Assembly: GCA_026710795.1 (NCBI GenBank)
Contig: JAPOQK010000080.1
Coordinates: forward strand, 465 to 64,464
Source: Candidatus Poribacteria bacterium
GTDB taxonomy: Bacteria > Poribacteria > WGA-4E > WGA-3G
Length of the DNA stretch: 64,000 nt
Reading direction: 5' to 3'
Shown here piece after piece: positions 8,932 to 30,646 of the stretch (the stretch's first letter is position 1; each line of letters opens with the position of its first letter). Both the position numbers and the translations under genes were made by a program. The notes beneath the pieces were generated by a model. The model was not told where the DNA came from, did not search any database, and was given only the letters and a program-made list of their open reading frames with translations.

Positions 8932-8958
8932 TTGAATATTTATGAGGGAGGAATTCCG

Positions 8959-10002
8959 ATGGAAACCACTCAATACCGCGTATGCATTGTTGGCTGTGGA
9001 CGGATGGGCGGCACCATTGATGAAGAAGTTAGCGGAACGCCGCACGGTGCACTACCGTATTCGCATGCTGCAGGATATACCGCTTATGAACGAACAGAAC
9101 TTGTCGCTGCCGCAGATGTAGTTGAAGAGAAAGCGAAGCACGTTTGCGACAAATGGGACATTCCAAAATACTACCTTGACTATCAAGAGATGATAACACA
9201 GGAAAAACCTGATATCATCAGTATTGCAACGCGTCCGGGTAACCATGCAGAAATCACTCAATTTGCCGCTGAAAACGGTGTGAAAGGTATATATTGCGAT
9301 AAACCCCTTTGTGCATCTATGGAAGAGGCGGATGCGATGCTTGAGGTCTGTGAGAAATACAATATAAAATTTAATCTTGGCACACAGCGTCGTTTTACAC
9401 CTGGCTATATCAAGATGCGTGAAATACTTGAGAGTGGACAAATTGGAGACAGACGTTCAATCATTTCTTATACGGGTGGTTCTGCCTTATGGGGTTATAC
9501 ACATGCTGCCGACTTGATACTCTTTTTAGCCAGTGATTCAGAGATAGATTATGTTCAGGGCAACGTCGCTGTTGATGATGCTGACTTTGAGGATAATCAA
9601 ACTGAATCGGATCCGGGTATTGTTATGGGGTACATCCGTTTTAAGAATGGCATCCACGGTATTAGCATTCTCGGTACTGCTTACGAATTTGAGGTGAATT
9701 GTAGTGAAGGCACAGTTCGTTCTCTCAACAACGGTCTCGGTTTTCAACTCCGTAAACGTCAGGGGCAATATAGTGAAATTTTAGATACACAATTCCCGCC
9801 TTTTGAACGCAAAAGTGGCACCGTCGGATGCATTGAGGACATTGTAGAGGCAATTGACACCGATACTGAAACACAAGGTAATATCCAACTGGCACATCGC
9901 AGCACCGAAATGGTCTTTGCCATAGTAGATTCTCAACGTCAGAAGGGCATGCGTGTGCCGATTCCTATGGAAAACCGAGGACTCTACCTCGGTAGGTGGT
10001 AA
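8959..10002 (+). CDS. Gfo/Idh/MocA family NAD(P)-dependent oxidoreductase
   Basis: N-terminal Rossmann motif VCIVGCGRMGG and GYTAYERTELVAAAD. Start placed at METTQY (GGAGG RBS) rather than the track start at 8932. Confidence 0.75.
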   Translation: METTQYRVCIVGCGRMGGTIDEEVSGTPHGALPYSHAAGYTAYERTELVAAADVVEEKAKHVCDKWDIPKYYLDYQEMITQEKPDIISIATRPGNHAEITQFAAENGVKGIYCDKPLCASMEEADAMLEVCEKYNIKFNLGTQRRFTPGYIKMREILESGQIGDRRSIISYTGGSALWGYTHAADLILFLASDSEIDYVQGNVAVDDADFEDNQTESDPGIVMGYIRFKNGIHGISILGTAYEFEVNCSEGTVRSLNNGLGFQLRKRQGQYSEILDTQFPPFERKSGTVGCIEDIVEAIDTDTETQGNIQLAHRSTEMVFAIVDSQRQKGMRVPIPMENRGLYLGRW

Positions 10003-13900: not shown

Positions 13901-15019
13901 CGGAATTCCTTAAACAATTCTTTCACTACAACGTTGGTTATGCAGGAGCGTTCTGAACCGCGCGGTGCATATATTCTGGAACGTGGGGCATACGAACATC
14001 GTGGAGAACAAGTCTATCCACAAACTCCGGCTGCACTCCCACCGATGGTGAAAGGTTCACCTCCAAACAGACTTTCACTCGCAAAATGGTTGGTTTCACC
14101 GAAGCATCCGCTCACATCGCGTGTCACAATTAACCGTTTCTGGCAACATATTTTCGGTGCGGGTATTGTCCGAACATCTGAAGACTTCGGCACACAAGGT
14201 ACACCACCTACCCATCCAGAATTGCTGGATTGGCTTGCAACCGAATTTGTCGCATCCGAGTGGGACGTGCAAACAATGCTGAAACTGATGCTAACCTCGG
14301 CAACATATAAACAAAGTTCACGGGTTACCCCAGAGAAATTGGAACTTGATGCCGATAACGTGTTGCTTTCCAGAGCACCAAGATACCGGTTAGATGCAGA
14401 AATTGTGCGTGATAATGTCCTTACACTCAGTGGCCTGATGTTTAAACGTATTGGTGGACCGAGTGTCAAACCCCCGCAACCGGGTGGACTTTGGAAAGCA
14501 GTCGGGTTTACCGGTTCTAATACAGATACCTTTAGGAAAGATTCTGGTTCTGATAAGGTGCATCGCAGAAGTCTCTATACCTTCTGGAAGCGAACAGCAC
14601 CACCGCCGCAAATGAACATATTGGATGCACCATCACGTGAGGCTTGCACAATTCGTCGTGAACGCACGAATACACCAATGCAGGCGTTGATGTTGATGAA
14701 TGACCCACAGTTCTTTGAAGCGGCACGCGTTTTTGCTGAACGAACAATCAAATTAGGAGGTAATACACCGGAAGAGCGAATCTCCTATATGTTTGAGTTG
14801 GCAACTGCCCGCGAACCCAAACCTACAGAAGCCGCACTGCTCCTTGAAACGATGAAGGCTCACGCGGAAGAACTGAAAGCAGATCCAGAGGCAGCCAAAG
14901 AACTCATTGCTGTCGGGGAATCCAAACCTGATGAAAAATTAGATGCAGTCGAAGTCGCTACATGGACAATGATTGCAAACCTTATCCTCAATCTGGACGA
15001 AGTCCTGAATAAGGGATAA
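10976..15019 (+). CDS. PSD1 family protein: planctomycete cytochrome c (PSCyt1) - DUF1549 - acidic repeat linker - discoidin-like - DUF1553
   Basis: 1347 aa; GTG start with AGGGAG RBS; signal peptide; CFACHGPDEKARKANLRLD haem-binding PSCyt motif; RRLSFDLTGLPPTLEEI DUF1549 hallmark; C-terminal WTMIANLILNLDEVLNKG PSD1-type end. Contains a KKAAEEA x3 run plus five or more PETDxGKDAEKPAEEAA repeats. Confidence 0.85.
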   Translation: MKSAKSSIPLTYLLVCLCILLLGVPLASADNHETAQTPVDYTQDIRPILSNNCFACHGPDEKARKANLRLDTKEGAFSEPSGYPILVPEKPDESELYLRIVSEDESYQMPPADFNKTLTPEQIETIKHWINQGAKWEDHWAFTTPVRPTLPAVKKADWVKNPIDAFILSRLEKEGLRPAEEADKRSLIRRLSFDLTGLPPTLEEIHLFLNDDSPNAYEKLINTFMAKPEYGEHMARLWLDVARYGDTHGLHLDNYREMWPYRDWVINAFNNNIPFDQFTIEQLAGDLLPEPTLDQRVATGFNRCHVTTSEGGSIAEEYYVRYAVDRANTTATVWMGLTAGCAQCHDHKYDPISQKEYYQLYAYFNNITENAMDGNRKDSPPVVKLPTPEQTAQLAKYDEQIKDLDAQSKGSIPHIDAAQTAWENRMPRWTTIKPEVVLSQGLATLKINDDNSVLASGTNPDKEVYEVIAKLPPGKWSALRLEGIPDKSLPGSGIGRSDNSNVVLTGFSVDIVPAEMAEEMLAEAQETAKKAEEAIQKAAEEAKKAAEEAKKAAEEAAKATDDSAVEAAPETDDGKDAEKPVEEDTPETDEEKDAEKPAEEAAPETNEGKDAEKPAEEAAPETDDGRDAEEAALETDEGKAAEEATVDGETPETDEAKDADETSEEAAEPAEEKDPWTSVPVVMAWADKEQSGGEFSIANAIDDKLETGWGLESNNNRGNSRQAIFLVANPFGIEGGLLRIRLNHESESAKHHLGRFRLAVTDAPTIYPIGSKVGLANWHSVGPFTAEHGNVAFYNVYEPETKPVNTGDKFTVGSQELTWKQQAHWKDGEVHNDIVGENSATYLYRNISSETKQKATLYLSSNDGLKVWVNQTEVLASNIQRDAVPDTDRIQIQLNPGNNALLLKVVNYSGPSGFYFRMESDTPMVTANIVDTIAIERGKRNGDQQTQIREYYRRNVTTDEGLKKLYADISDTQNKRNSLNNSFTTTLVMQERSEPRGAYILERGAYEHRGEQVYPQTPAALPPMVKGSPPNRLSLAKWLVSPKHPLTSRVTINRFWQHIFGAGIVRTSEDFGTQGTPPTHPELLDWLATEFVASEWDVQTMLKLMLTSATYKQSSRVTPEKLELDADNVLLSRAPRYRLDAEIVRDNVLTLSGLMFKRIGGPSVKPPQPGGLWKAVGFTGSNTDTFRKDSGSDKVHRRSLYTFWKRTAPPPQMNILDAPSREACTIRRERTNTPMQALMLMNDPQFFEAARVFAERTIKLGGNTPEERISYMFELATAREPKPTEAALLLETMKAHAEELKADPEAAKELIAVGESKPDEKLDAVEVATWTMIANLILNLDEVLNKG
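12537..13010 (+). repeat. in-frame tandem repeats encoding an acidic low-complexity linker inside the PSD1 gene (KKAAEEA x3, then ~51-bp/17-aa PETDxGKDAEKPAEEAA x5 or more)
   Basis: Direct DNA repeats (gcagcaccagaaac(c/t)gatga(a/t)gg.aaggatgctgaaaaacc...) visible in the sequence. They generate spurious overlapping ORFs on both strands in the track. Confidence 0.8.
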
Positions 15020-15029
15020 TCAAATTTGA

Positions 15030-15060
15030 TGGACACTACATCTCAGTAGTGTCCATTTAT
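15030..15060 (+). terminator. rho-independent terminator after PSD1 gene
   Basis: TGGACACTAC (15030-15039), 6-nt loop, GTAGTGTCCA (15046-15055), then TTTAT. Confidence 0.6.
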
Positions 15061-15081
15061 CCAATCAAGGAACACAGACTT

Positions 15082-15819
15082 ATGAATGATACTTATGTAA
15101 TAATATCCGATGCCAACTTAGCCGCTGCCATACGAGAAGTACTCGGTTTGAGCTCAGGTGATACTATCCCGTTAAAAAGGTTAGAGGAATTAGAGAAACT
15201 ACATGCTGATGAAAAAGGTATAAAAGACTTAACAGGATTAGAGAATGCAACAGGATTAAAGGTATTAGAACTTCAAAAGAATCAAATTAGCGACATCACA
15301 CCTATTAGCGGATTGAAGCAACTGACTTATGTAGAGTTCTGGGATAATCAAATCACGGATATTTCACCGCTTGCAAAGTTAAAGCAAGTCACAAAATTGG
15401 GACTCGGTGACAATTGTATCAGTGACATCAAACCTCTTACGGAGTTAACCCAACTCACAGAATTGGGACTTTGGGATAATCAACTTAGCGACATTTCTCC
15501 ACTTACGAACTTGACACAGATACAGTTGTTAAACATCAGACGAAATCAACTTAGTGATATAAGTCCACTTGCCAACTTAAAACATATTACGCATTTATGG
15601 CTTAGTGGCAATCAAATTAAAGACATAAATACTATTGGTGGACTGACGCAGTTGACACATTTAGCATTGGATAAGAATCAAATCAACACCATTCAACCTA
15701 TAGTTAACCTAACGAGTTTAACGCATTTACGTATCAATGAGAATCCGATTCAGGACATTGAATCGCTTCCTAGACTGACAGATATAGAACTGGATATTCC
15801 AACTCTTGTTGACAATTAA
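15082..15819 (+). CDS. leucine-rich repeat (internalin-like 22-aa LRR) protein, single module
   Basis: Repeats of LxxLxxLxLxxNQIsDIsPL. N-cap AIREVLGLSSGDTIPLKRLEELEKL and C-cap NENPIQDIESL. Start moved to MNDTYV because the ORF-track start at 15049 lies inside the PSD1 terminator hairpin. Confidence 0.75.
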   Translation: MNDTYVIISDANLAAAIREVLGLSSGDTIPLKRLEELEKLHADEKGIKDLTGLENATGLKVLELQKNQISDITPISGLKQLTYVEFWDNQITDISPLAKLKQVTKLGLGDNCISDIKPLTELTQLTELGLWDNQLSDISPLTNLTQIQLLNIRRNQLSDISPLANLKHITHLWLSGNQIKDINTIGGLTQLTHLALDKNQINTIQPIVNLTSLTHLRINENPIQDIESLPRLTDIELDIPTLVDN

Positions 15820-15834
15820 ATTGAGGGCTACAAT

Positions 15835-18795
15835 ATGAAGTCTTTTTTCGTTATGGTTCTCATACTCATATCTTCCCTCACATTTGCATATAGCGATACT
15901 GTGGTAATTCCAGACGTGAACTTAGATGCTGCTGTGCGCGAAGCACTCAGTTTAGATCCAACTGATCCTATCCCACAAAATAAGTTGGAAGAATTGGAAA
16001 GTTTAGATGTCATAGAAAAAGGCATAAAAGACCTAACAGGTATAGAAAAAGCAACAGGATTAACGACATTAGAACTTAATGACAATCAAATTAGTGACAT
16101 CACACCCCTTACTAACTTAACTAAACTGACAGAACTATACCTTACAAATAATCAAATCAGTGACATCAAGGCATTGGCAAGCTTAACTGAACTCATAAAA
16201 TTATCAATCTCTGGCAACCAAATCAATGATATTACTCTGCTTGCTGGATTGTCAAAACTCACAGAATTATGGTGTAACAATAATCAAGTCAGTGATATAA
16301 AACCAATTGCTGGATTGACGCAACTGACGCAATTATATCTTTGGAATAATCCACTCAAGGACATTACGCCGCTGGAAAGAATGGAACAGTTAAGGGAGTT
16401 AAGTCTTGGGGGAAATCCGATCAACGACTTAACACTATTCTCAGGTATGACGGAATTGAGGAAGCTATGGCTTTGGGATAGTCAAATCAGTGATATCACC
16501 CCGCTTGCTGGATTGACAATGCTAACAGACTTATACCTCACGAAAAATCCTATCAATGACATCACCCCACTTGCTGGATTGACAAAACTGGAAAAGTTAT
16601 ACCTCATAGAAAATCAGATTAACGACATCACCTCGCTTGCTGGACTAACCAAACTTACAACATTATGGCTTGACGACAATCAAATCAGCGACATTACGCC
16701 ACTCGCGGGATTGACACAGCTGACAGACCTAACTCTCATGGATAATCAAGTTCGTGATATAACATCACTTTCTGGATTGGCGAAGTTGAAATGGTTACGT
16801 ATCTGGAACAATCAGATTAGTGACATCACACCACTTGCGAACTTGAAACAGTTGGCAACCTTATTGCTCTTAAATAATCAGATTTCTGACATTACGTCTC
16901 TTGCTGATCTAACACAATTAACGCATCTAAATCTTTCCGGAAATCAGATCCAAGACATCACACCACTGACGGGATTAACACAATTAACATATTTATCCCT
17001 CAGTAGAAATCAAATCAGCGACATCAAAACCCTATCAAGATTGGCACAGTTGACATCATTATCCCTTGACGATAATGGAATCAGTGACATAAAACCAATT
17101 GAAGGTTTAATAAAGATTCGTAGTTTATTGCTCAGCAGAAATAAAATTGACAACATCACGCCAATTGCTGGGTTGACGGAACTCACACAGTTATGGCTTT
17201 CAAACAATCAGATCAACGACATCAAATCGCTCTCAGAATTAACGAATTTGACAGAATTATTGATGTATGACAATCAAATCAAGGATATCAGTCCTGTTGA
17301 GAATCTGACAAGTTTAACGCTTTTAAAGGTCTATGGAAATCCAATTCAAAATATGGAATCACTTGTGAGGTTATTGAAACAAGTTCCAGATTTGAAATTG
17401 GATATCCAAGCACAGCTTCCAATAACGTCTATCCCCGATCCAACAATACCGGATGTTAATTTAGCCAACGCGGTGCGAGAGGAACTCGGTTTGAAACGTA
17501 GCGATACCATACCGTTGATGAATTTGACAGAATTAGAGGAGTTAAATGTCGGAGGAAAGAGTATAGAAGACTTAACAGGACTGGAAAAGGCGACAAAATT
17601 AAAGGTCTTGGTACTTGATCGTAATCAAATCAGTGATATTATGCCGCTCGCTAATCTGAAACAACTCACAGACTTAGATCTTAGTCGAAATCAGATCAAT
17701 GACATCACACCTCTTGCAGACTTGACCCAACTCACTGAGCTGAAGATTCAGAATAACCAAATCAGCGACTTAAAACCGCTTTCTAAATTAACACAAATTA
17801 CATTGTTACGTCTTAATGACAACAAAATCAAAAATGTCATGCCGCTCATACGAATGTCGAAGTTGACACATTTATATCTTACCAGAAATCAAATAAGCGA
17901 TATAACACTCCTCGGGGCATTAACACAGTTGGAAGAGTTAGCCATTGGTGGTAATCAGTTTCGTGACATCACGTTTCTTGCTGACTTGACTAACCTAAAG
18001 ATGTTATGGCTTTGGGGAAGTCAGATTCAGGACATCACACCACTCAAAAAACTAACCCAATTAACAGGCTTAAACCTTCATGACACACAAATTCGTGATA
18101 TCACAGTCCTTGGTGGAATGACAAAATTGACATGGCTCCGAATTCATAAAAATGCAATCAACGATATTACGCCTCTCGCGAACTTAACACAACTAACAGG
18201 AATACTGCTTCAGGAAAATCAAATCACGAACCTTACACCTCTCGCTGGGTTGAAAAAATTGGATAGTTTGAGTCTCCAAAAAAACCAAATTGATGATATC
18301 ACACCACTCAAAGATTTAACAAAGTTAAAAGAATTAAATCTGGGTGGAAACAAAATTACCGACATCACACCTATCCAAAATTTACGAAGTTTGACATCAT
18401 TTTGGGTATGGGATAATCAAATTACCGACATAACACCATTAACTGAGTTGACACAAATGGAGAAGTTGTGGCTTTGGGGAAATCAAATCAGCGATCTCAC
18501 ACCGATAACTAATTTCACAGAATTGGAAGAGTTAAGCCTTGGAGTTAACAAAATCAGTGATCTCACTCCCATAGTAGGAGCAACAAAGTTAGAACTATTG
18601 GATATAGACAGAAACCAAATCACTGACATCAGCCTCCTTGTAAAGTTTCCAAATTTAAGGAGTCTAAATCTCAGGGGAAATCCAATTCAAGATATGGAGC
18701 CTCTTCAAATACTGTTGAAACAAAATGAGAATTTAAAAGTGGATGTACCGACATCAATTGAACTGAATATTCAGCCACCACCTGCAAATAAGTAA
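15835..18795 (+). CDS. large secreted LRR protein made of two internalin-like LRR modules
   Basis: 986 aa; signal peptide MKSFFVMVLILISSLTFA; about 40 22-aa LRRs. N-cap motif (IPDVNLxxAVREeLxL...IPxxxLxELEeL...KxIxDLTGxEKAT) occurs at residue ~20 and again at ~540; both modules end with GNPIQxME.L. Confidence 0.8.
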   Translation: MKSFFVMVLILISSLTFAYSDTVVIPDVNLDAAVREALSLDPTDPIPQNKLEELESLDVIEKGIKDLTGIEKATGLTTLELNDNQISDITPLTNLTKLTELYLTNNQISDIKALASLTELIKLSISGNQINDITLLAGLSKLTELWCNNNQVSDIKPIAGLTQLTQLYLWNNPLKDITPLERMEQLRELSLGGNPINDLTLFSGMTELRKLWLWDSQISDITPLAGLTMLTDLYLTKNPINDITPLAGLTKLEKLYLIENQINDITSLAGLTKLTTLWLDDNQISDITPLAGLTQLTDLTLMDNQVRDITSLSGLAKLKWLRIWNNQISDITPLANLKQLATLLLLNNQISDITSLADLTQLTHLNLSGNQIQDITPLTGLTQLTYLSLSRNQISDIKTLSRLAQLTSLSLDDNGISDIKPIEGLIKIRSLLLSRNKIDNITPIAGLTELTQLWLSNNQINDIKSLSELTNLTELLMYDNQIKDISPVENLTSLTLLKVYGNPIQNMESLVRLLKQVPDLKLDIQAQLPITSIPDPTIPDVNLANAVREELGLKRSDTIPLMNLTELEELNVGGKSIEDLTGLEKATKLKVLVLDRNQISDIMPLANLKQLTDLDLSRNQINDITPLADLTQLTELKIQNNQISDLKPLSKLTQITLLRLNDNKIKNVMPLIRMSKLTHLYLTRNQISDITLLGALTQLEELAIGGNQFRDITFLADLTNLKMLWLWGSQIQDITPLKKLTQLTGLNLHDTQIRDITVLGGMTKLTWLRIHKNAINDITPLANLTQLTGILLQENQITNLTPLAGLKKLDSLSLQKNQIDDITPLKDLTKLKELNLGGNKITDITPIQNLRSLTSFWVWDNQITDITPLTELTQMEKLWLWGNQISDLTPITNFTELEELSLGVNKISDLTPIVGATKLELLDIDRNQITDISLLVKFPNLRSLNLRGNPIQDMEPLQILLKQNENLKVDVPTSIELNIQPPPANK

Positions 18796-18846: not shown

Positions 18847-20325
18847 ATGGACCCAATTAAGGAATATTTGAAACTTGAAACCCGCCGCCAATTCTTCGGC
18901 AAATGTGCAACAGGACTCGGCGGTGCAGCCCTTGCCACATTGCTGCCGAATAGCATCGTAAACGCTCTTGAACAGCAGGCAGGAACGCGGGTTGGCGGAT
19001 TACCAGAACTGCCGCACTTTGCACCAAAAGCGAAACGCGCAATCTACCTATTTATGTCTGGTGCGCCTTCGCAAATGGACCTGTTTGACTACAAACCGAA
19101 GATGGGGGAATTCTTTGATAAAGACCTACCGGAAACAGTCCGGATGGGACAACGTCTTACTACAATGACCTCAGGACAAGCACGGTTCCCAATTGCACCG
19201 TCTATCTTTGAGTTCAAAAAACACGATAATGGAGGCGATGGTGCGTGGCTTAGCGAGTTGCTGCCTCATACAGCAACTATGGTTAAGGATATCGCTATCG
19301 TCAAATCAGTACATACCGATGCGATTAATCACGATCCAGCAATCACTTTCGTCTGTACCGGTGATGAGACTCCGGGTAAACCGAGTCTCGGTGCATGGCT
19401 TAGTTACGGTCTCGGTAGTGAAAACCAAAACCTTCCCGCTTTCATTGTGATGAACGCGACTTGGAGTGGTCCGAAGGGGGCACAGGCACTCTACAATCGT
19501 CTCTGGGGTTCTGGTTTCCTCCCATCTGAGCATCAAGGTGTGCTACTCCGCAGTCAAGGCGATCCTGTGCTGTTCCTCTCAAATCCGAAAGGTATGAATG
19601 AAAAAACACGCAAACGGATGCTTGATTCTTTAGTCAAACTCAACGAGGAAATATATGAGGAAGTCGGTGATCCTGAAACGCATGCGCGTATCACACAATA
19701 TGAGATGGCATTCCGTATGCAGACCTCTGTTCCTGAGCTCACGGATCTGAAACAGGAGACTGACAAAGTTAAGGAGATGTACGGTCCTGAGGTTGACACA
19801 CCCGGAACATTTGCTAATTGCTGCATCCTTGCTCGTAGGATGATGGAACGCGATGTCCGTCTCGTTCAAATCTTCCACCGCGGATGGGACCAGCACGGTG
19901 ATTTACCCAAGAACATCCGAAATCAGGCGCGCGACATTGACCAACCCGCAACCGCACTCGTTCAAGACCTGAAACAACGCGGAATGCTTGATGATACGCT
20001 CGTTGTGTGGGGTGGTGAATTCGGTCGAACTGTCTATTGCCAAGGGGCACTTAAGAAGGATAACTATGGACGAGATCATCATCCTAAGTGTTTCACGCTA
20101 TGGATGGCTGGTGGTGGTATCAAAGGTGGGGTCGTTTACGGCGAAACTGATGATTTCAGTTACAATATCGTCAAAGACCCTGTATCTGTTCGTGACCTAA
20201 ACGCAACAATCCTTAACCAACTCGGCATTGACCACGAACGCTTGACCTATAAGTTCCAAGGACTTGATCATCGGTTAACTGGCGTTGAAGAGAAAGCACG
20301 TGTTGTCAATGAGATATTGGCATAA
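18847..20325 (+). CDS. DUF1501 domain protein (sulfatase-like, Tat-secreted), copy 1
   Basis: 492 aa; Tat motif [19 protein letters not shown]. This family is the canonical genomic partner of PSCyt/DUF1549/DUF1553 proteins. Confidence 0.8.
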
Positions 20326-20339
20326 CAAAGGAGTTAACA

Positions 20340-21818
20340 ATGGACCCAATTAAGGAATATCTGCAACTTGAAACACGCCGTCAATTCTTCGGAAAATGTG
20401 CGATGGGTCTCGGAGGAGTAGCCCTCGCTTCATTGCTTCCGAATAGTATTGTAAATGCCCTTGAACAGCAAGCAGGTACACGGGTTGGCGGTTTGTCCGA
20501 ACTACCACACTTTGCACCAAAAGCGAAACGTGCTATTTACCTATTCATGTCCGGTGCGCCATCGCAAATGGACATGTATGATTATAAACCGAAAATGGGT
20601 GAATTCTTTGATAAAGATCTACCGGAAACAGTTCGGATGGGACAACGTCTTACCACCATGACCTCCGGACAGAAACGTTTCCCGATTGCACCATCTATAT
20701 TTGAGTTTAAGAAGCATGACAACGGTAGTGATGGTGCTTGGGTTAGCGAATTGCTCCCGCATACTGCTTCTATGGTAAAGGATATAGCAATCGTAAAATC
20801 GTTGCATACCGATGCGATTAACCACGACCCGGCTATTACCTTTGTCTGTACTGGCGATGAAACTCCCGGTAAACCGAGTCTCGGTGCGTGGCTTAGTTAC
20901 GGATTAGGCACAGACAACAAAAATCTTCCATCTTTTATTGTAATGAATGCCACGTGGACAGGTAGGAAGTCCGCACAAGCACTATATAACCGACTATGGG
21001 GTTCTGGTTTTCTCCCATCAGAACATCAAGGTGTCCTACTCCGAAGTCAAGGCGATCCGGTACTATTCCTCTCAAATCCGAAAGGCATGAGCGAAAAAGC
21101 ACGAAAACGGATGCTTGATTCTTTAGTCAAACTCAACGAGGAAATCTACGAAGAGGTAGGTGATCCTGAAACGCATGCACGTATTTCCCAATATGAGATG
21201 GCATTTCGTATGCAGTCCTCTGTCCCTGAACTCACTGACCTAAAACAGGAGTCAGATAAAGTCAAGGAAATGTATGGTCCAGAGGTAGACACCCCAGGCA
21301 CATTCGCGAATTGCTGTATTCTTGCGCGTCGGATGATGGAACGTGATGTTCGCCTCGTACAAATCTTCCATCGCGGATGGGATCAGCACGGAAACTTACC
21401 TAACGATATTCGAAACCAATGTCGTGACATTGACCAACCCGCAACGGCACTTGTCCAAGACTTGAAACAACGTGGTATGCTTGATGATACACTCGTTGTG
21501 TGGGGTGGTGAATTCGGACGGACTGTTTATTGCCAAGGGGCACTCAAGAAGGATAACTACGGGAGAGATCATCATCCGAAATGCTTTACGATGTGGATGG
21601 CAGGCGGCGGTGTCAAACCCGGAATCGTTCACGGTGAAACTGATGACTTCAGCTACAACGTCATCAAAGACCCCGTATCTGTCCGAGACCTTAACGCTAC
21701 GATACTTAACCAACTCGGTATTGACCACGAAAGGTTGACCTATAAGTTCCAAGGACTTGATCATCGGTTAACTGGGGTTGAGGAAAAAGCGCGGGTCGTT
21801 AACGAAATCTTGGCATAA
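20340..21818 (+). CDS. DUF1501 domain protein, copy 2 (tandem duplicate)
   Basis: 492 aa, about 90% aa and 87% nt identity to copy 1 over full length. Confidence 0.8.
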
Positions 21819-21929
21819 TCAAAACATACAGTAAGTGTGCCATCTTCAACAGTTGAACTGCTGCATATCTATCTCTGTCTACACGCAAAACTATCGCAAC
21901 TACAGTTTTTTAAGATGTATGGAGTTGAA

Positions 21930-23090
21930 ATGCAAGTTTACCATGGTACCGAACAGACACTTGATGCAAATACATTCCTCTCAATTCTGCAAGAAGATTA
22001 TGACAGCATATTTTTGACAAATTGCATAATTGAAGGTGTAATTGTCTTCTCATCTGAAACTGATGTAGAGATTGATGGACAATTGGTAGTTGATAAGGAA
22101 ATTGTTTGCGTTCGGTGCACGTTTAAAAACGTTTTCAAATTCGAAAATACCTTATTCAAAAAAGAAGTGTTTTTCGGTAATTCAGTGTTTCAAGATACTG
22201 TTAATTTCCGTAATAGTGTGTTCCAGAAAGCCTGTGACTTCGGGGAATCCACCTTTGAAGGTTCAGTCCTTTTCCGTGGTGCAGCCTTCAACGGAATGGC
22301 ACGCTTTTCCAAAACACGTTTTCAACAGGTTGCAGATTTTAACGATTCGCAATTCTCGGAAAACGCGGTTTTCAGAAATGCAATCTTCCAAGATGCTTCA
22401 CATTTCAACCGAGCGTTTTTCAGCAAGAAATTAGATTCCGTACAAGCACGATTCTCAGATACTGTTGTCTACAATGAGGCAACGTTTAGCGAAGAAACTG
22501 ATTTCACTGCTGCACGATTTGCCGTTTCCGCGTCCTATCAAAATGTGAGTTATATATCAGACACAATATGGCAGTGGATACGGAATAAGTTTTCTCATCA
22601 GTCAATACAACCTACAGAATTCTATTTAGATAGTGAAGACATTAATGGGGTTTTGAATCCATTTTTCAAACGTTACGTAGCGGATCAACAGTACGTTCGG
22701 GCATTCAAAGAAAAACACCCATTTTGGGCATTGGTCTGGAGATGGAGTTCAGATTATGGTCGCAGTTTAGCACTTTGGGCACTCTGGTCATTGCTGATTG
22801 CTCTTTCGTTCTCATTTGTTTATATGAAAGCACCGATGTGGTTTCCAGGATGGCTTCAAAAAACAATGCCTAAGTTCCACCAAGTAACAGTCACCGAAGC
22901 AAACGGAGACCTGACATTTTGGAAATCCTTTTACTTTAGTATTGTCACCTTTACGACATTAGGATTCGGGGATGTGGTTGCAGCCAATACATCCGCTCGC
23001 ATTCTCGTCACCCTTGAAGTCATTTTCGGATATATTATGCTCGGAGGATTAATCAGTATTTTTGCCAATAAACTTGCCAGTAGAAGTTAA
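21930..23090 (+). CDS. pentapeptide-repeat protein fused to a 2-TM K+-channel-like pore domain, paralog 1
   Basis: N-terminal tandem A(D/N)FxxxxF pentapeptide repeats (NSVFQDTVNFRNSVFQKACDFGESTFEG...). C-terminal TM1 LALWALWSLLIALSFSFVY, pore helix plus filter FYFSIVTFTTLGFGDV, TM2 ARILVTLEVIFGYIMLGGLISIFA. Start chosen at MQVYHG (GGAG RBS); the track start at 21837 is probably too far upstream. Confidence 0.7.
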   Translation: MQVYHGTEQTLDANTFLSILQEDYDSIFLTNCIIEGVIVFSSETDVEIDGQLVVDKEIVCVRCTFKNVFKFENTLFKKEVFFGNSVFQDTVNFRNSVFQKACDFGESTFEGSVLFRGAAFNGMARFSKTRFQQVADFNDSQFSENAVFRNAIFQDASHFNRAFFSKKLDSVQARFSDTVVYNEATFSEETDFTAARFAVSASYQNVSYISDTIWQWIRNKFSHQSIQPTEFYLDSEDINGVLNPFFKRYVADQQYVRAFKEKHPFWALVWRWSSDYGRSLALWALWSLLIALSFSFVYMKAPMWFPGWLQKTMPKFHQVTVTEANGDLTFWKSFYFSIVTFTTLGFGDVVAANTSARILVTLEVIFGYIMLGGLISIFANKLASRS

Positions 23091-23180
23091 TATCACATCT
23101 CCGATTCGCGTTACCGCTACTCCATGATTAACAACATTTGGTAGTACCTGAACTATAGTAGGGAGAGAAAATCAAGGATT

Positions 23181-24332
23181 ATGAAAAAATTAAATGCAGC
23201 TATTGTCGGAGCAGGATGGTCAGCAGAAGGACACACAAAAGCATTCCAACATTACGGTGTAGAAGTGATCGTTATCTGTGCGCGCAAACCTGAAATCGTT
23301 GGGAGAGTCGCCACCGAATTAGGTATTCCAAATGCCTCAATTGACTGGCGAAAAAGTTTGTTGGAACATAAACCTGATATTGTTGCGGTTACAACACCTG
23401 CTATTTTACGCACAGAAGTCATTGAAGTAGCAGTTGAACTCGGATGTCATGTCATCTGTGAAAAACCGCTTGCTCTTACCGCTGAAGAAGCAGGTCATAT
23501 CTATAACCTCATCAAAGATACGGAATTGAAACACGCTTTCGCCGCAACACATTTATACGACCCGAGCGTGGCTTATGTACGTGAACTGCTGACACAGCAG
23601 AAAATCATCGGTGATATAACCGCAGTTGATGTCGGATATACCCGAAGAATACCAGGTCCTCCTTCAGATAAAATTAAGCCTTGGAATTGGATGAGTTCTC
23701 TTGCACACGGTGGTGGTGCTTTAAACAATGGACTCACACACCGACTCGGTATGCTTGAGCGGATGACCGGCATGAAAGTATCAGCAGCAGTCGGTGAGGC
23801 AAAAATCCATCCAAGGAAAGCACCGGTAGTTCCGGAAATACGCGATTGGCGTGTGTGGCGAAGCACTATGATTACTCAAGAGGAAGCATCAAAACTTGAG
23901 TGGCGTGAGTGTGATGCGGAATGGGATTATTCCGCGTTTTTCAAGTTGGGACATCCAAATCCAGATTCCAGCAATGCTATTCTTGCGACAATGCGCACAA
24001 ATCCGGGAGTGCCATCAAATAAACCCCATGGTGGCTGGTTTTTCTACGGAACACAAGGCACACTCGTCGGGAGAGGTGGACATATTCTATATCAAATTAC
24101 AAAACATGTTGGTGAGGAAACTGAAGAACTGTCAGTACCACAGGAGTTTCAAGACGACCTGCCTCAAATCGGAGATGAAATCCAAAATAAGTGGACTGCT
24201 CTCGTTCGTGATTTTCTCGCAGATATTCAAGATCGTCCACACGAACCATATTTGACTTTCCATGATGGATGGCGTTACCAAATTGCTATTGATGCTATTC
24301 GGGGAAGCGAAGGATGGGCTGCGATGCTTTAA
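23181..24332 (+). CDS. Gfo/Idh/MocA family oxidoreductase
   Basis: 383 aa; AIVGAGWSAEGH Rossmann motif and EKPLALTAEEA, typical of this family. Confidence 0.75.
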   Translation: MKKLNAAIVGAGWSAEGHTKAFQHYGVEVIVICARKPEIVGRVATELGIPNASIDWRKSLLEHKPDIVAVTTPAILRTEVIEVAVELGCHVICEKPLALTAEEAGHIYNLIKDTELKHAFAATHLYDPSVAYVRELLTQQKIIGDITAVDVGYTRRIPGPPSDKIKPWNWMSSLAHGGGALNNGLTHRLGMLERMTGMKVSAAVGEAKIHPRKAPVVPEIRDWRVWRSTMITQEEASKLEWRECDAEWDYSAFFKLGHPNPDSSNAILATMRTNPGVPSNKPHGGWFFYGTQGTLVGRGGHILYQITKHVGEETEELSVPQEFQDDLPQIGDEIQNKWTALVRDFLADIQDRPHEPYLTFHDGWRYQIAIDAIRGSEGWAAML

Positions 24333-24377
24333 TGGAGCAAGCGGTATATGCGTTTCAAATCGTAAGGAAAAATATAA

Positions 24378-25562
24378 ATGTATGAAAAGCATGATGAGAC
24401 GATTGAAGCGCGGGAACTGCTTGAGGCATTGGAAAGCGATACCTCACACATCTCACTGAATAATTGCACGATTGAAGGCGTTATTGACCTACATGCAACA
24501 GAACTTGAACGCGATGCAAATGACCGAATCTGTATTGATAAAACCCTATCCTGTATCGGGTGTACTTTCAATAACATTGTTAATTTCCGAACAGCAGTTT
24601 TCCAACAAGAAGTCTCCTTCCGCCGTTCCGTTTTTGAGGCAGATGCCGATTTTGATGAAGCCACTTTCCAACATCAAAGCGGGAATCGTGAAACGATGCT
24701 TCACAGCGGTTTTCGTGAAACAACCTTTGCGGGTCGTGCTAACTTCCATAGTGTTGTTTTCCACAGAAGCGTAAGTTTTTGGCGTGCAAAATTCCACAAC
24801 GTCGCAGACTTCCACCAAGCACAATTTCATAATAACGCTGTTTTCCATGAAGCACAATTCCAAAAGGAAGTGAACTTTAGACGTGTGCTTTTCCAACAGA
24901 CACTTGATTGTACCGGTACAAACTTCGCACAAGTCGTTGAATTTAATCGGGCAACATTTATCGGTACCACCCTTTTTACTGCAGCAAAGTTTGCATCTGT
25001 CGCCTCCTTTCGTGATGTTCAGTATATCCCAAATACAATCCGTCAATCGATTGTAAATAGGTTCACCAAAAATCGCAAAAAACCTACAGAATTCTATTTG
25101 GACAGTCAACATGTGGACGAAGTTGCTAACCCATTTTTCAAACGTTATGTAGCGGATCAGCAGTTCATTCGTGCATTCAGTAAAGCGAATCCGATGTTAG
25201 CGCGTCTATGGAGATGGAGTTCTGATTATGGACGAAATCTGGGTTTATGGGCTTTTTGGTCACTGTTTTTTGCATTTCTGTTTGCTATAACATACATGCC
25301 GTTTCCATCGTGGACACCCGAATGGATGCAAACCTTATCCCCCCAATTTCATCAAGCGACTGGTCAGTATAGTGGTGAGCAGTTAACGTTTTGGAATTCC
25401 TTCTATTTCAGCGTTGTCACATTTACTACACTCGGTTTCGGTGATGTTGTAGCAGACAACGCCACCGCACGTCTACTTGTGACGTTGGAAGTCATTTTTG
25501 GCTATCTGATGTTAGGTGGGTTGATCAGTATCTTCGCAAATAAACTTGCAAGTCGTAGTTAA
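24378..25562 (+). CDS. pentapeptide-repeat protein fused to a 2-TM K+-channel-like pore domain, paralog 2
   Basis: 394 aa; same architecture and the same FSVVTFTTLGFGDVVADN filter; C-terminal 18 aa nearly identical to paralog 1 (FANKLASRS). Confidence 0.7.
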   Translation: MYEKHDETIEARELLEALESDTSHISLNNCTIEGVIDLHATELERDANDRICIDKTLSCIGCTFNNIVNFRTAVFQQEVSFRRSVFEADADFDEATFQHQSGNRETMLHSGFRETTFAGRANFHSVVFHRSVSFWRAKFHNVADFHQAQFHNNAVFHEAQFQKEVNFRRVLFQQTLDCTGTNFAQVVEFNRATFIGTTLFTAAKFASVASFRDVQYIPNTIRQSIVNRFTKNRKKPTEFYLDSQHVDEVANPFFKRYVADQQFIRAFSKANPMLARLWRWSSDYGRNLGLWAFWSLFFAFLFAITYMPFPSWTPEWMQTLSPQFHQATGQYSGEQLTFWNSFYFSVVTFTTLGFGDVVADNATARLLVTLEVIFGYLMLGGLISIFANKLASRS

Positions 25563-25636
25563 TGAAGTGAGTGTTTAATGGTAGTAGGTAGACTCTGTGG
25601 CCCGTCCACAAGTTAAAAAATATATGAATTTTACGA

Positions 25637-26005
25637 CTACTAATACCATTTCTAATAAATAAAGTGCCATTTGCTGAGGACTACTTGTAGGAGCGACCTC
25701 CTGGTCGCGACCGGGAGGTCGCTCCTACAGAAGAAAGATTTCCAATCAATAACAATGGTTGAATCCAGTAATGGGACAATAAATATTAGAATTGGTATAA
25801 CTAAAGTGTCGTCAATTGGCTTTACCTGAATAAGTCTATTTTCGTGTTTATCCACCCAAATTATTATACAGACTCACAACTAATACCATTTCCAACATAT
25901 AATGTCCCTTTTTGTAGCACAAACTGTTAGTTTGTGTCCTACAGCATTACTATACTAATAACCGAAAATGAGACAATTATTAATAGAAATGGTATAAGTA
26001 TTGCG
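25637..26005. repeat. two tandem MITE-like units, each bounded by ~35-bp terminal inverted repeats (TAATACCATTTCTAATA...AAGTG core)
   Basis: Four copies in alternating orientation: 25639-25672(+), 25770-25810(-), 25877-25910(+), 25965-26005(-). The core ACTAATACCATTTC(T/C)AATA recurs as its reverse complement TATTAGAAATGGTATAAG. Confidence 0.6.
25687..25728. repeat. 42-bp near-perfect palindrome GTAGGAGCGACCTCCTGGTCGCGACCGGGAGGTCGCTCCTAC
   Basis: The two 21-nt arms are reverse complements with one G.T mismatch. It lies inside the first MITE-like unit and shares the GAGCGACCTCC core with the dispersed REP-like element. Confidence 0.7.
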
Positions 26006-26130
26006 AAGTATTGAGAATTCGCTGTCTATAGTTTTTCATCTAATTATTCTCTCAGTGATTGTTCATTTTTGGAAGGAAAGAAGAAGAGAAATAAAAACTG
26101 AATCAATATTGATACGGAGGTCCTTAAAAA

Positions 26131-26795
26131 TGGCTAGAAAAATTTTTGTGTCCTATAAACACTCTGATGATAGTGTTGAACCCATTAAGGACGAAACAAC
26201 AGCACGTGCTTATGTTGATGAGTTAATTGAAATCTTTGAAGATGATGAAATCTATAAAGGTGAAGGCGATGAAGATTTGAGTGAATTCAAAGATGAAACG
26301 ATTGAAACTCACCTGAAAGATAAGATATACGACAGTAGCGTAACACTTGTTCTAATTTCACCAAATATGAAGGAATTGTTGAAAAATGAATCTGACCAAT
26401 GGATTCCTTGGGAAATATCATATTCTCTAAAAGAAATAACACGAAATGAGCGTACAAGCCAAACAAATGGCATGCTTGCAATTGTTTTGCCAGATTCAAA
26501 TTCATCATATAGTTATTATCTTGAAGAAAATACATGCACTGCTTGCAATTGCCGCACCCTACATACTAATACACTGTTTCAGATACTACGAGATAATATG
26601 TTCAATGTTATGGAACCAACATTTAGTAATTGTCCAGAACATCCTCCTGAAACTGTATATAAAGGTCATTCTTCCTATATTTATTCGGTTAAATGGAGTG
26701 ATTTTATAGGTGATACAGACAAATATCTTGACATAGTGGAAGAAATAAGGGAAAATATAAATGATTACGACATTACAAAAACAGTGAAAGATTAA
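26131..26795 (+). CDS. TIR-like domain protein (DUF1863 / ThsB-like) with C-terminal Cys/His-rich extension
   Basis: Start at MARKIFVSYKHSDD (GGAGG RBS 9 nt upstream); K/R-IFxSYxHxD is the typical ThsB/DUF1863 opening. SSVTLVLISPN....WIPWEISYSL resembles, from memory, the DUF1863 core (vtiVLiG....W.yEI). C-terminal CTACNC....CPEH could bind metal. Local GC about 33-35%. The ORF-track 5' extension (TTG at 26001) overlaps an inverted repeat and is less likely. Confidence 0.5.
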
Positions 26796-26905
26796 ATTGT
26801 GGATAAGTTTACTCTCAAATTGATATTGACAAGATCACCTATTATTTTCCACAGTATAATAAACTGTATATTAATTTGTAACACATGGCTAAGGAGGACA
26901 AAGTC

Positions 26906-27313
26906 ATGAACGGTACAGAAAAAGTCGTAAAACATTTGGAGATGATACAAGCTGTAATTAACCGTTTGGGACGAAACAGTTTTCTCTTAAAAAGCTGGAG
27001 TATGACAATTCTCGTTGCAGCCATGGTCTTAATCGCAAAGGAAGATCTACAAAATCCATATACTGTTTTAGTTCTTTTTCTTCCAATTTTTGGATTTTGG
27101 ATTTTGGATGGTTACTTTCTCCAGCAAGAACGACTGTTCCGAAAAGTCTATGACGAGGTCAGAGGACAAACTGATACCGAATTCGAAATGAATCTTGGCA
27201 AGCACAAAGACAAACCAAAGTGTAGTCGATTGTCTGCTACTTTTTCCCAAACACTCGTTATATTCTACTTGATAGAAATCCTTTTCGTAATTGCAGTAGC
27301 TTATTTCTTTTAG
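26906..27313 (+). CDS. small 3-TM membrane protein (possible SLATT-like effector partner of the TIR gene)
   Basis: Perfect AAGGAGGA RBS 8 nt before ATG 26906. Predicted N-terminal amphipathic helix, TM1 WSMTILVAAMVLIA, TM2 VLVLFLPIFGFWILDGYFL, a ~55-aa loop, TM3 TLVIFYLIEILFVIAVAYFF. Same strand and 110 bp after the TIR-like gene. Confidence 0.45.
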   Translation: MNGTEKVVKHLEMIQAVINRLGRNSFLLKSWSMTILVAAMVLIAKEDLQNPYTVLVLFLPIFGFWILDGYFLQQERLFRKVYDEVRGQTDTEFEMNLGKHKDKPKCSRLSATFSQTLVIFYLIEILFVIAVAYFF

Positions 27314-27895: not shown

Positions 27896-28309
27896 GGTAT
27901 TAAACAATACAAAAACAGCAAAAAATCAAAGAATAATAAGTAATTCAAAGGTTACGGTTTTTCTTTTTTTTTACATTCAAAAAAACCGATGAAAACAACC
28001 CATAAACCCAGACAGGAACTAAAACCAGTGAAAAATACCAAAAGTTACCGTTATGTAGAAATTAGACATAAAACCGTAACCTTTTTATACGGAAAAAAAC
28101 CCAATGAAAATGCAAGACAAACAATTCACAGTCAAATATAATGTCCGAAGTCTTGTGCATGGTGTTCCATTCGTTTCTTTATGCAAAAAACTTTACACAC
28201 CAAAAATCAACCATTGACAGAATATGGAAATAGAAATATAATTAAATAGGAAATGCCATACCTAAGCATTACTCAACCACATTTCACTGTTCGTTTAAGG
28301 AATCTCTTT

Positions 28310-30646
28310 ATGTCATTCAGGATCTTATCTAAACTTGTTGTTATCCTCATACTATGCATCTCCATAACACATGTAACAGCGCAAGAGTCTCCTAACACCG
28401 ATTACTTCGACCACATCACCCTATTCTCAGACGGCAGAATCACACGATTCGCACAGATGCCGATTCGCGTGTTCATTTCATCTGTCATAAAAGAGAGTCC
28501 ATACCTACCAGAACTTCGCTACGCAATGCGTGAATGGGAGACTGCAACCGAACAACTGATCCAATTTCAGGAAATCGATACACCAGATAAAGCAGATATC
28601 AAAGTTAGTTGGGGATATAGTAGTCTGATGGATATACATGATACCCGTCTCGGAAGTGCACAGTTAAGACGGATACCTAACAGACAGGCAACAGATAAGG
28701 ATAACGAAGTAATAATCGAAGTAGAAATAATACTCATGCTGGAAGGCGATGATACCGTCACAGAACTATCCGAACTGGAAATGCGTACAGTCTGCCTACA
28801 CGAGTTCGGACATGCAATTGGATTATGGGGACACAGTCCACACCCAGGCGATATATGCTATCCTACTGCCACAGCACAGCATCCGTCTCTGCGAGATATA
28901 AACACCTTACGTAAACTCTATAATACACCGATTGGCACTCCTCAACACGACGAGGCAATCAAAGCATTAAAAACGGAGATTTTACAAGAACCCAGGGAAC
29001 ATTACCATCACTTTCTACTCGGTAATGTCCATTTTGACAAAGGTGATATGGAATCCGCCATTGATAGTTATCAAGATTGTATCCATATAAATGAACACTT
29101 CCAACCTGCCATTGAAAAACTATTGATGGCTTATGAAGCAATAGGGCAGTTATCTACGGCGATCAATCTGCTTGAACAAAGGATAAAAACCAAACCGAGA
29201 TCTGCCGATTACAACACACTCGGAATTCACTACTACAATAAAGGTGAAGTTGATATGGCGATAGATTCCTTTAAAAGTGCTGTTGCTCTCAACCCTTACC
29301 ACAAAGCATCAAAACATAACTTACACCAACTCTTCAGAGAAAAGGCACTCCGCTCGCTAAAAGCCGAGGACTTTGAAACAGCAACGAAGATGTTTGAGAA
29401 GATTATCCAACTCAACCCGATGGATTCAACGACATATATGTTGATGGGTGAGGGTTATGCTCGGGCTGGACATTACAAGAATGCCATTGATTACTATCAA
29501 AAAGCACTTAAGATAAATCCTGTTAGTAGAATAACCAAACGAGGACTCGCGCAATCATATAACAACTACGGAGTCACGCTCAGAAATAGTAAGAAATGGG
29601 ATGATGCTATCGCCGCTTACCATAAGGCATTGGAAATACATCCCGCTTTCCATATTGCCCGATCAAACTTGAGTGATGCTTTTTGGCAGAAAGCAAACAC
29701 CTTACGCAATAACGGACAAGTTGATGAAGCCATCAACGCTTATTTGGAATTGCAGAAACTTCAACCAAAGGACACACAAATCTCCAGTTTACTTGGTGAG
29801 TTGTATCTCAAAAAACGGAATTATGCCGCTGCTGTCACTGAATTTCATAAAGTCTATTTGTCAAAACCTGATGATCCTCAAGCACGCCATAACCTGATTG
29901 CAGCATATCATCAATCAGCACAACATCTGATTGATCGGAAAGATTTCGGTTCCGCTATTGAACTCCTTCAGAAAGCAGTGATCATTGCCCCTACCGAAAC
30001 CAATATTCGTTTGAGTTTAGCACATGCATATCAAAGCATTGGTGAATATGAAAGTGCCCAAACAGAACTTAATCATGTCATTAAAAGCGATCCACACAAC
30101 CAGCAAGCAAATACCGAGCAAATAAACCTCTATATTCGTCTTGGAAATGCGTTTGTGCAGCAGAAGAATTATCCTGCCGCACTTGCACAGTTCCAAGCAA
30201 TCCCTGAAACTGAAAGAGATGTCGTCATAAACAATATAATAGGTTACCTCTATCTCGTTCAAGGGAGATATACTGAGGCATTGACTGCCTTTGATAAGGT
30301 AATTTCCCAAGATCCATACAATAGACCAACCTATCAAAATCTCATTTCGCTTGAAGCTCAAGTGGCAAACCGAATCTTTGGACGCAATAAAACTGATATA
30401 CTCATACGGACGCGATGCATACTCGCTATCTGCTTGTTAAACCAGAACAAATTTGACGCTGCACTTACAAAATACCAACAAGCAAAAGATAGCAAATCAG
30501 AAAAACATCAAGAACTTTTATATAATACTGGAACAAAATTACTGAGTAGATTTGAAGCACAGAAGGATTTGGAGAAAAGTGCTACGATACGTCAATGGAT
30601 TGGAGAACTAAACTACAACCCCAACAAGGTACTTGATGACCGTTAG
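28310..30646 (+). CDS. secreted zincin (matrixin-like HExxHxxGxxH) metalloprotease domain fused to ~500 aa of TPR repeats
   Basis: Start at MSFRIL with signal peptide (ORF-track start 28253). VCLHEFGHAIGLWGHSPH zinc motif; many TPR units (AIDSYQDCIHINEHF..., AIDYYQKALKINP..., AIAAYHKALEIHP...). Confidence 0.75.
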   Translation: MSFRILSKLVVILILCISITHVTAQESPNTDYFDHITLFSDGRITRFAQMPIRVFISSVIKESPYLPELRYAMREWETATEQLIQFQEIDTPDKADIKVSWGYSSLMDIHDTRLGSAQLRRIPNRQATDKDNEVIIEVEIILMLEGDDTVTELSELEMRTVCLHEFGHAIGLWGHSPHPGDICYPTATAQHPSLRDINTLRKLYNTPIGTPQHDEAIKALKTEILQEPREHYHHFLLGNVHFDKGDMESAIDSYQDCIHINEHFQPAIEKLLMAYEAIGQLSTAINLLEQRIKTKPRSADYNTLGIHYYNKGEVDMAIDSFKSAVALNPYHKASKHNLHQLFREKALRSLKAEDFETATKMFEKIIQLNPMDSTTYMLMGEGYARAGHYKNAIDYYQKALKINPVSRITKRGLAQSYNNYGVTLRNSKKWDDAIAAYHKALEIHPAFHIARSNLSDAFWQKANTLRNNGQVDEAINAYLELQKLQPKDTQISSLLGELYLKKRNYAAAVTEFHKVYLSKPDDPQARHNLIAAYHQSAQHLIDRKDFGSAIELLQKAVIIAPTETNIRLSLAHAYQSIGEYESAQTELNHVIKSDPHNQQANTEQINLYIRLGNAFVQQKNYPAALAQFQAIPETERDVVINNIIGYLYLVQGRYTEALTAFDKVISQDPYNRPTYQNLISLEAQVANRIFGRNKTDILIRTRCILAICLLNQNKFDAALTKYQQAKDSKSEKHQELLYNTGTKLLSRFEAQKDLEKSATIRQWIGELNYNPNKVLDDR

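Follow-up and report, generated by a model that had tools for sequence, protein, structure and literature searches.

Two paralogous proteins of a sponge-associated poribacterium combine a pentapeptide-type beta-solenoid with a predicted two-transmembrane potassium channel pore

What does a pentapeptide-repeat domain do when it is built onto a potassium channel pore? The question is raised by a stretch of 64,000 nucleotides (nt) from a sponge-associated Candidatus Poribacteria genome (NCBI GenBank assembly GCA_026710795.1, contig JAPOQK010000080.1, positions 465 to 64,464 of the forward strand), which as a whole is called the window here, and by two of its genes, named chanA and chanB below. 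The initial annotation had described them as paralogous fusions with a Gfo/Idh/MocA oxidoreductase gene between them, and this is confirmed by the open reading frames (ORFs), the Pfam matches and an identity of 49% between chanA and chanB from end to end; all three genes run in the same direction. Our reading, to which we give a probability of roughly 60%, is that chanA and chanB are subunits of tetrameric, K+-selective channels of the KcsA/KirBac type with two transmembrane (TM) helices, and that the solenoid built by the repeats regulates the pore, assembles it, or does both.

The pore module is recognised by several approaches. Pfam, whose calls were made against curated thresholds throughout, places Ion_trans_2 well above its cutoff of 22.5 bits in chanA (50.5 bits, E 2e-13) and in chanB (53.4 bits). 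Hydropathy gives two TM segments per protein, with chanB peaks at 286-308 and 362-390, and the signature T-x-x-T-x-G-[YF]-G-D is present as T348-F-T-T-L-G-F-G-D356 in chanB and identically in chanA. An AlphaFold2 (AF2) model of chanB, computed as a single chain from a 38-sequence family alignment, reached a predicted local distance difference test score (pLDDT) of 92.9 and a predicted template modelling score of 0.86. It puts the filter in a re-entrant loop between the outer helix M1 and the inner helix M2, directly behind a predicted pore helix, which is where the initial annotation had expected the TLGFGD segment to lie. Foldseek superposed KirBac3.1 entries on the chanB pore with a root mean square deviation (rmsd) of 3.1-3.4 A over 99-104 columns at a probability of 1.00, while sequence and profile searches of the PDB returned K+-selective pores only, led by the second pore domain of TASK-3/TASK-1 and followed by Slack, TOK1, BK, KcsA and KirBac. 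The minimal two-TM pore with a TTLGFGD filter, and its KcsA-type likeness, are therefore upheld by sequence and model alike; neither a missing Ion_trans_2 match nor a TLGFGD segment outside the loop, which the initial annotation had named as refuting outcomes, was observed. No solved structure matched a solenoid-pore protein beyond the pore.

With the chain ending 38 residues past the filter Asp, both proteins lack a C-terminal cytoplasmic or gating domain. A glycine stands 19 residues past the filter Asp (G375 in chanB, G367 in chanA), and a second conserved glycine, the first of GGLISIF (G380 in chanB), stands 24 residues past it; we take these positions to be those of KcsA G99/MthK G83, the hinge, and of KcsA G104, respectively. 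The glycine hinge had originally been assigned to GGLISIF; the conserved glycine is indeed found there, but the hinge position lies five residues away, at G375/G367.

Prokaryotic K+ channels serve as the structural reference for all K+ channels, and the two proteins share with KcsA and KirBac3.1 the M1, pore helix, filter and M2, together with glycines at the KcsA G99 and G104 positions. Among the top matches KirBac3.1 gave the tightest superposition (about 3.3 A, with 24-27% identity). Unlike KcsA and KirBac3.1, chanA and chanB carry no C-terminal cytoplasmic domain, their predicted cytoplasmic mass being the N-terminal beta-solenoid, and their filter reads TLGFG instead of TVGYG or TIGYG. 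From the Kir/KirBac inward rectifiers they differ further in that the IRK profile stays under its threshold in both. The best sequence match among solved structures is the second pore domain (P2) of the two-pore-domain (K2P) channels TASK-3 and TASK-1 (E 8e-11 with the family profile), where residues of the pore helix are similar and the TASK-3 segment TLTTIGFGD has the filter T-[IL]-G-F-G-D in common with chanB. However, a K2P subunit has two pore domains and assembles into dimers, whereas chanA and chanB have one pore domain each, and the similarity covers about 30-50 residues only.

The N-terminal domain had been annotated as about 25 tandem pentapeptide repeats with Phe, to be recognised by PF00805. 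Its match is instead to Pentapeptide_3 (PF13576), at 64.8 bits (E 8e-18) in chanA and 80.6 bits in chanB against a cutoff of 27, in four stretches each; PF00805 was not listed at E <= 0.01. The spacing of Phe alternates 5, 6, 5, 6, and the autocorrelation of Phe peaks at lags 11, 22 and 33 with z scores of about 6-10, a periodicity far above chance (10.4, 8.3 and 5.9 in chanB, against 1000 shuffles); lag 5 equals lag 6, and lags 10, 15 and 20 stay under the reporting threshold. The spacing and the lag-11 peaks together identify the repeat unit as an undecapeptide (5+6) of the form xxFxxxxFxxx, present in about 13-14 copies in chanB residues 61-218, and not as a pentapeptide. The earlier count thus comes close, but the period is 11 and not 5: the repeats do not fall into units of exactly five residues of the form A(D/N)(L/F)XX, and the 48-position Pentapeptide_3 model fits the undecapeptide unit better than a strict pentapeptide. 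DSSP assigns the solenoid of the models a regular EE---EE---- pattern, and the N-domain modelled by itself again reached a pLDDT of 92.9. Two residues of the cap in front of the solenoid, A11 and G34 of chanB, are almost invariant in the N-domain alignment, and the chanB solenoid contains a disordered 9-residue insertion around residues 100-108.

The four best PDB matches of the N-domain model are the pentapeptide proteins QnrB1, AlbG, AT2G44920 and MfpA, with which chanA and chanB share the Pentapeptide_3 match, the A-x-F pattern and Phe as the central inward residue. They differ from these proteins in the period of 11 rather than 5, in a near-neutral charge, and in that the domain is joined to a channel. 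Residues 61-218 of chanB hold 14 Asp/Glu and 15 Lys/Arg, and the chanA solenoid holds 16 and 17; by this crude composition test the solenoid is near neutral and does not present the acidic surface of a DNA mimic.

Between solenoid and pore lies a linker which in chanB consists of a helix at 221-229, the segment TEFYLDS, a helix at 252-270 (NPFFKRYVADQQ) and a helix at 272-285 (WRWSSDYGR). In the AF2 model the last two helices immediately precede M1, and the blocks of the linker have pLDDT values of about 90 and above. The linker motifs NPxxKRYxxDxQ and WxxxSD[YC]GRS are kept throughout the family, as is the C-terminal NKLA[RS]RS, and many distant representatives align to the query only from about residue 232 on; linker and pore together therefore make up the conserved core.

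This combination of domains is not a peculiarity of one locus. An exhaustive HMMER search covering 1.84 billion cluster representatives found 9703 matches at E <= 1e-3 and 2073 at E <= 1e-10, and the counts that follow refer to the best-scoring cluster representatives, 149 in general and 112 for the Pfam scan. Pentapeptide_3 and Ion_trans_2 were each found in 98 of the 112, local HMMs detected both modules in 103 of the 149, and TLGFGD is present in 112 of the 149. Long representatives which seemed to have no Phe-type repeat turned out to carry canonical PF00805 pentapeptide repeats in all ten cases checked (10/10). The linkage of solenoid and pore is thus obligate across the family, and the type of solenoid, canonical or Phe 5+6, is interchangeable in front of the pore; solenoid length also differs among members. 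Phylogenetic distribution, which the initial annotation had proposed as a check, proved broad: in species-representative genomes relatives are encoded by at least 247 species, among them members of Poribacteria, Multivoradales, Aminicenantes, several Desulfobacterota groups, Planctomycetota, Gammaproteobacteria, Myxococcales and Actinomycetes, and one relative lies on a contig labelled archaeal. The architecture therefore marks a large and widespread family and not a local oddity.

In one subgroup (P0160, P0177, P0192, P0198, P0201, P0202, P0214, P0225, P0227 and P0258) the N-terminal cap is replaced by a Cys/His motif, C-x2-C ... C-I-F-H-S, which resembles a small zinc-binding module. A viral, Kcv-like origin of the family was considered and rejected, as 2.9 million viral contigs gave nine matches, of which only three extend past the filter region of the pore.

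The proteins closest to chanA and chanB, at 91% identity or less, come from Candidatus Poribacteria and bear the NCBI name 'potassium channel family protein'; the closest homolog of chanB is a 'potassium channel family protein [Candidatus Poribacteria bacterium]' at 91%. The domain combination is already visible in NCBI product names as well as in precomputed Pfam annotations, and what is new here is the recognition and characterisation of a channel class, not the discovery of an unknown sequence. KCTD9 combines a T1/BTB domain, which is of the channel-tetramerisation type, with pentapeptide repeats. Pentapeptide domains on membrane proteins are reported for HglK and SV2A-C (PMC8145042). Unlike chanA and chanB, none of these has an ion-conducting K+ pore; the SV2 solenoid is luminal, that of HglK is C-terminal, and KCTD9 is soluble. 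A full-text literature search found no published paper on a fusion of pentapeptide repeats with a K+ channel, and a 2021 review of pentapeptide repeat proteins never mentions channels (PMC8145042), in agreement with the earlier statement that a K+ pore gated by such a domain is functionally uncharacterised.

The comparison of the two paralogs bears out a further point of the initial annotation, namely that the pores are nearly identical while the repeat domains have diverged. The caps are 33% identical and the solenoids 38%; the linkers reach 59%, the stretch from M1 to the turret 46%, and that from the pore helix through filter and M2 88%. Gene conversion was rejected as the cause of the near-identical pores, because only 19 of the 48 identical residues in the pore helix-M2 segment use the same codon (40%), the segment is 75% identical in nucleotides, and no exact match between the two genes is longer than 19 nt. 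Judged by these codon and nucleotide comparisons, the likeness of the pores reflects purifying selection on an old duplication. Across Poribacteria the chanA and chanB orthologs fall into separate groups. Many surface residues of the solenoid are at least 95% conserved within 108 chanB orthologs, and three chanB histidines, H124, H146 and H157, are 98-100% conserved in these orthologs and absent from those of chanA. The distance of 22 residues between H124 and H146 would correspond to one coil, and the three histidines may constitute a pH- or metal-sensing site. Because the pores are the same and the solenoid surfaces differ, the paralogs probably answer to different inputs while their channels share the same conduction properties. 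The coordinates of these features are collected in Table 1. For chanA the first possible start is a GTG at 21837; the ATG start listed, which has GGAG 5 nt upstream, is preferred because orthologs are called at 386 aa as well.

Table 1. Features of the two channel genes and of the gene between them (window coordinates), with the HDOD-domain genes found next to channel genes in other loci (coordinates of those loci).
Feature	Position	Strand	Basis
chanA, 386-aa solenoid-K+ pore protein	21930..23090	+	ORF calls, Pfam, hydropathy
chanA selectivity-filter codons TTLGFGD, residues 342-348	22953..22973	+	
Gfo/Idh/MocA-family NAD(P)-dependent oxidoreductase, 383 aa	23181..24332	+	Pfam
chanB, 394-aa solenoid-K+ pore protein	24378..25562	+	ORF call, Pfam, AF2 model
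chanB N-terminal cap, residues 1-60, short strands and helix 11-19	24378..24557	+	AF2 DSSP, pLDDT 97-98
chanB Phe-ladder beta-solenoid, residues 61-218	24558..25031	+	Pentapeptide_3, lag-11 autocorrelation, DSSP
chanB H124, H146, H157	24747-24749, 24813-24815, 24846-24848	+	ortholog alignment
chanB conserved pre-M1 linker, residues 219-287	25032..25238	+	DSSP of AF2 model, family alignment
chanB outer helix M1, residues 288-306	25239..25295	+	hydropathy, AF2 helix
chanB pore helix (338-349) and filter TTLGFGD (350-356)	25389..25445; filter nt 25425-25445	+	AF2, sequence
chanB inner helix M2, residues 362-393, with G375, G380/G381 and C-terminal NKLA[SR]RS	25461..25556	+	
HDOD genes	L059 6555-7379; L069 6420-7289; L071 6416-7336; L075 3383-4207; L077 6381-7274		

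As a working model, four subunits would form a K+-selective pore with both the N and the C termini in the cytoplasm. The cytoplasmic mass would be entirely N-terminal, consisting of a capped, Phe-cored solenoid of about 160 residues and then a linker of about 70 residues with two amphipathic helices; the four solenoids would hang below the membrane and the pore as a regulatory and/or assembly module. A bound partner, or surface sites particular to a lineage, would determine the state of the solenoid, and the pre-M1 helices, which would hold the position of the slide helix in Kir/KirBac channels, would relay this state to the M2 gate, or bundle, with the conserved basic NKLA[RS]RS at its end. 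The established regulatory domains of prokaryotic K+ channels are, to our knowledge, RCK/KTN, CNBD, the Kir C-terminal domain and voltage sensors. If the model is right, an N-terminal beta-solenoid as the sole cytoplasmic domain, distributed over many phyla, would be a new kind of channel regulation, and there would be a concrete and testable role for pentapeptide repeat proteins, the majority of which lack a known function. Both proteins are short (about 390 aa) and confidently modelled, and should suit cryo-electron microscopy and K+-uptake complementation. As for the window itself, two genes of an uncultured sponge-associated lineage now have a well-supported annotation.

Loci of other lineages contain further domains beside or in front of the solenoid-pore module. 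In Woeseiaceae-type loci an FMO-like flavin monooxygenase is fused ahead of canonical pentapeptide repeats with the same linker and pore; these fusions have 836-857 aa and were recognised by Pfam in L055 (3847-6420) and by sequence homology in L067 (3934-6444) and L063, and L056 and L072 contain candidate ORFs of the same length (857 aa). A GAF-domain gene follows the channel gene in L055, L056, L063 and L067, whose GAF-type neighbours cluster together. In five loci of different phyla, from a gammaproteobacterium, Desulfobacterales and other Deltaproteobacteria, and an actinomycete, a gene with an HDOD domain directly adjoins the channel gene at its 3' end or overlaps it; the domain was called by Pfam in three of the five (E down to 7e-53), and the other two fall into the same BLAST cluster.

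The FMO-like fusions and HDOD neighbours, together with the conserved chanB surface, favour a regulatory over a purely structural solenoid, as far as sequence comparison goes. In a more ambitious version of the model, which we put forward tentatively and hold to be less likely than not, a large class of prokaryotic K+ channels, not described in the literature searched, would be defined by pentapeptide-type solenoids as its obligate gating module, and these would relay lineage-specific inputs to a KcsA-like gate through the pre-M1 helix pair. These inputs would include a stacked His site in chanB, the fused flavin monooxygenase and HDOD, and the two paralogs would be two tunings of one channel or would form heteromers.

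Several points weigh against the proposed regulated K+ channel. Its filter is of the GFG type with Leu at the KcsA V76 position, and K+ conduction by such a pore is a prediction only. The N-domain superposes poorly on solved pentapeptide proteins (template modelling scores of 0.18-0.31, rmsd > 10 A), and its coil geometry, put at 22 residues per coil, is a prediction. The slide-helix analogy is one of position alone, the IRK profile scoring 21.6 and 18.5 bits against a cutoff of 22.7. No conserved partner gene was found in Poribacteria. Family-wide, finally, the inward-pointing Phe residues are the only solenoid positions conserved, which argues that there is no universal ligand site and that the solenoid could be a structural spacer only.

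The last point leads to the alternative that survives best, although we regard it as rather unlikely. The solenoid would be a scaffold for assembly or spacing, an analogue of the Kv T1 domain that serves tetramerisation or anchoring and not gating, and gating would be intrinsic, residing in the filter or arising from effects of membrane or pH on M2. Besides the conservation of core Phe alone, the exchange of canonical and Phe-type solenoids before the same pore and the variable solenoid length fit this view. However, a mere scaffold does not readily account for the strong surface conservation among chanB orthologs with its B-specific His trio, for a pre-M1 linker as conserved as the pore, or for the attachment of sensor-like modules (the FMO-like fusion, the HDOD neighbour) through the solenoid in other lineages, all of which speak for a regulatory part of the solenoid.

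The gene between the paralogs suggests another explanation. Its product matches GFO_IDH_MocA (PF01408) with 66.6 bits (cutoff 24, E 4e-18), which is the N-terminal Rossmann domain, and the C-terminal family domain PF22725 with 28.3 bits (cutoff 27); none of the NCBIfam equivalogs came near its cutoff. In voltage-gated K+ (Kv) channels a cytoplasmic N-terminal T1 domain precedes the membrane module, and Kv-beta is an aldo-keto reductase. By analogy, an N-terminal domain ahead of the pore and an adjacent oxidoreductase gene might recall this arrangement, and the oxidoreductase would then be a Kv-beta-like subunit docked on the solenoid, coupling the channel to NAD(P)H or substrate state. In the window, as in many Poribacteria loci, the gene precedes chanB in the same orientation with 45-50 bp in between, and the FMO-like enzyme of the Woeseiaceae-type loci is a redox enzyme fused to the same solenoid-pore module. 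Unlike the Kv case, however, the solenoid is unrelated to T1/BTB in sequence or fold, there is no voltage sensor, and the link to the oxidoreductase is not conserved. Among the approximately 40 Poribacteria loci compared, the oxidoreductase gene is absent from six (L017, L024, L026, L027, L030 and L031) and is separated from chanB by some 1.7 kb in many more, and no locus of a distant family member showed it beside the channel gene. Moreover, chanA does not consistently neighbour it, and the window holds a second gene of the same family at 8932-10002. These observations make a docked subunit improbable.

The same comparison qualifies the picture of two paralogs flanking an oxidoreductase, which is true in the window but varies among Poribacteria. 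In their loci a TPR/M10 peptidase gene usually lies to one side of chanB, one or two DUF1501 genes lie upstream with or without the oxidoreductase gene, and chanA is present or absent and varies in position; the order DUF1501-DUF1501-chanA-oxidoreductase-chanB of the window is one of several arrangements. As synteny is variable, the oxidoreductase was rejected as a fixed partner of the channels; it is probably a neighbour with variable synteny and no component of the channel.

Least probable of all, to the point of being barely credible, is an abortive-infection or defence effector in which a pentapeptide DNA-mimic decoy, on sensing a phage protein, would depolarise the cell by opening the pore: chanB does border a variable slot (with a ThsB-like TIR and PDC-M50A here, a methyltransferase and a ResIII helicase in a relative) and some pentapeptide proteins, QnrB1, MfpA and AlbG, are DNA mimics (PMC8145042), but neither channel has a PADLOC match, synteny is stable, the A and B ortholog groups are deep, vertically inherited and under purifying selection, the GC content of the channel genes equals that of the genome and not the 34.5% of the adjoining island, the solenoid with 14 acidic and 15 basic residues is not acidic as a DNA mimic would be, and among 2.9 million viral contigs only three of the nine matches extend past the filter region.

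The slot itself holds a candidate two-gene defence pair (26001-27313) within the patch of 34.5% GC, against about 42% elsewhere. The first ORF (26001-26795, with a true start probably near 26130) encodes a ThsB-type TIR protein (PADLOC PDLC00428, E 6e-84; Pfam ThsB_TIR), and the second (26885-27313) a small membrane protein with a PDC-M50A match (E 6e-38). In PADLOC-DB chanA, the oxidoreductase gene and chanB had no match at E <= 0.01, while these downstream ORFs do match. On the far side of the slot lies the conserved M10/TPR neighbour (28253-30646), a protein of 797 aa with a matrixin-like M10 peptidase domain and many TPR repeats. In two relatives the slot carries other cargo, an N6_N4 methyltransferase with the ResIII helicase in L001 and WD40 proteins in L002, and it looks like a variable island hotspot.

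Between chanB and this pair, 125 nt past the chanB stop, lies a perfect GC-rich hairpin (25687-25728) with 15-bp arms (GTAGGAGCGACCTCC) and a 12-nt loop. It is the sole copy in the window, 0.02 being expected by chance, and could be a terminator-like element or a boundary of the island. Rfam and tRNA scans gave nothing close to the locus, and a promoter and terminator scan of 21600-26200 was uninformative, with fewer sites than in shuffled sequence.

No third copy of the solenoid-pore gene occurs within the window. Upstream of chanA, two tandem DUF1501 genes (18847-21818) share 93% protein identity, against 49% for the adjoining channel paralogs, and relatives have one DUF1501 gene ahead of each channel gene. 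This hints at an ancestral duplication unit of DUF1501 and channel gene, in which the DUF1501 genes were later homogenised or were more constrained. Farther upstream (10976-18795) are a PSCyt1/PSCyt2/PSD1 protein of 1347 aa and then two leucine-rich-repeat proteins of 256 and 986 aa, the larger with 21 LRR_4 stretches; eukaryote-like repeat proteins have been described for sponge symbionts.

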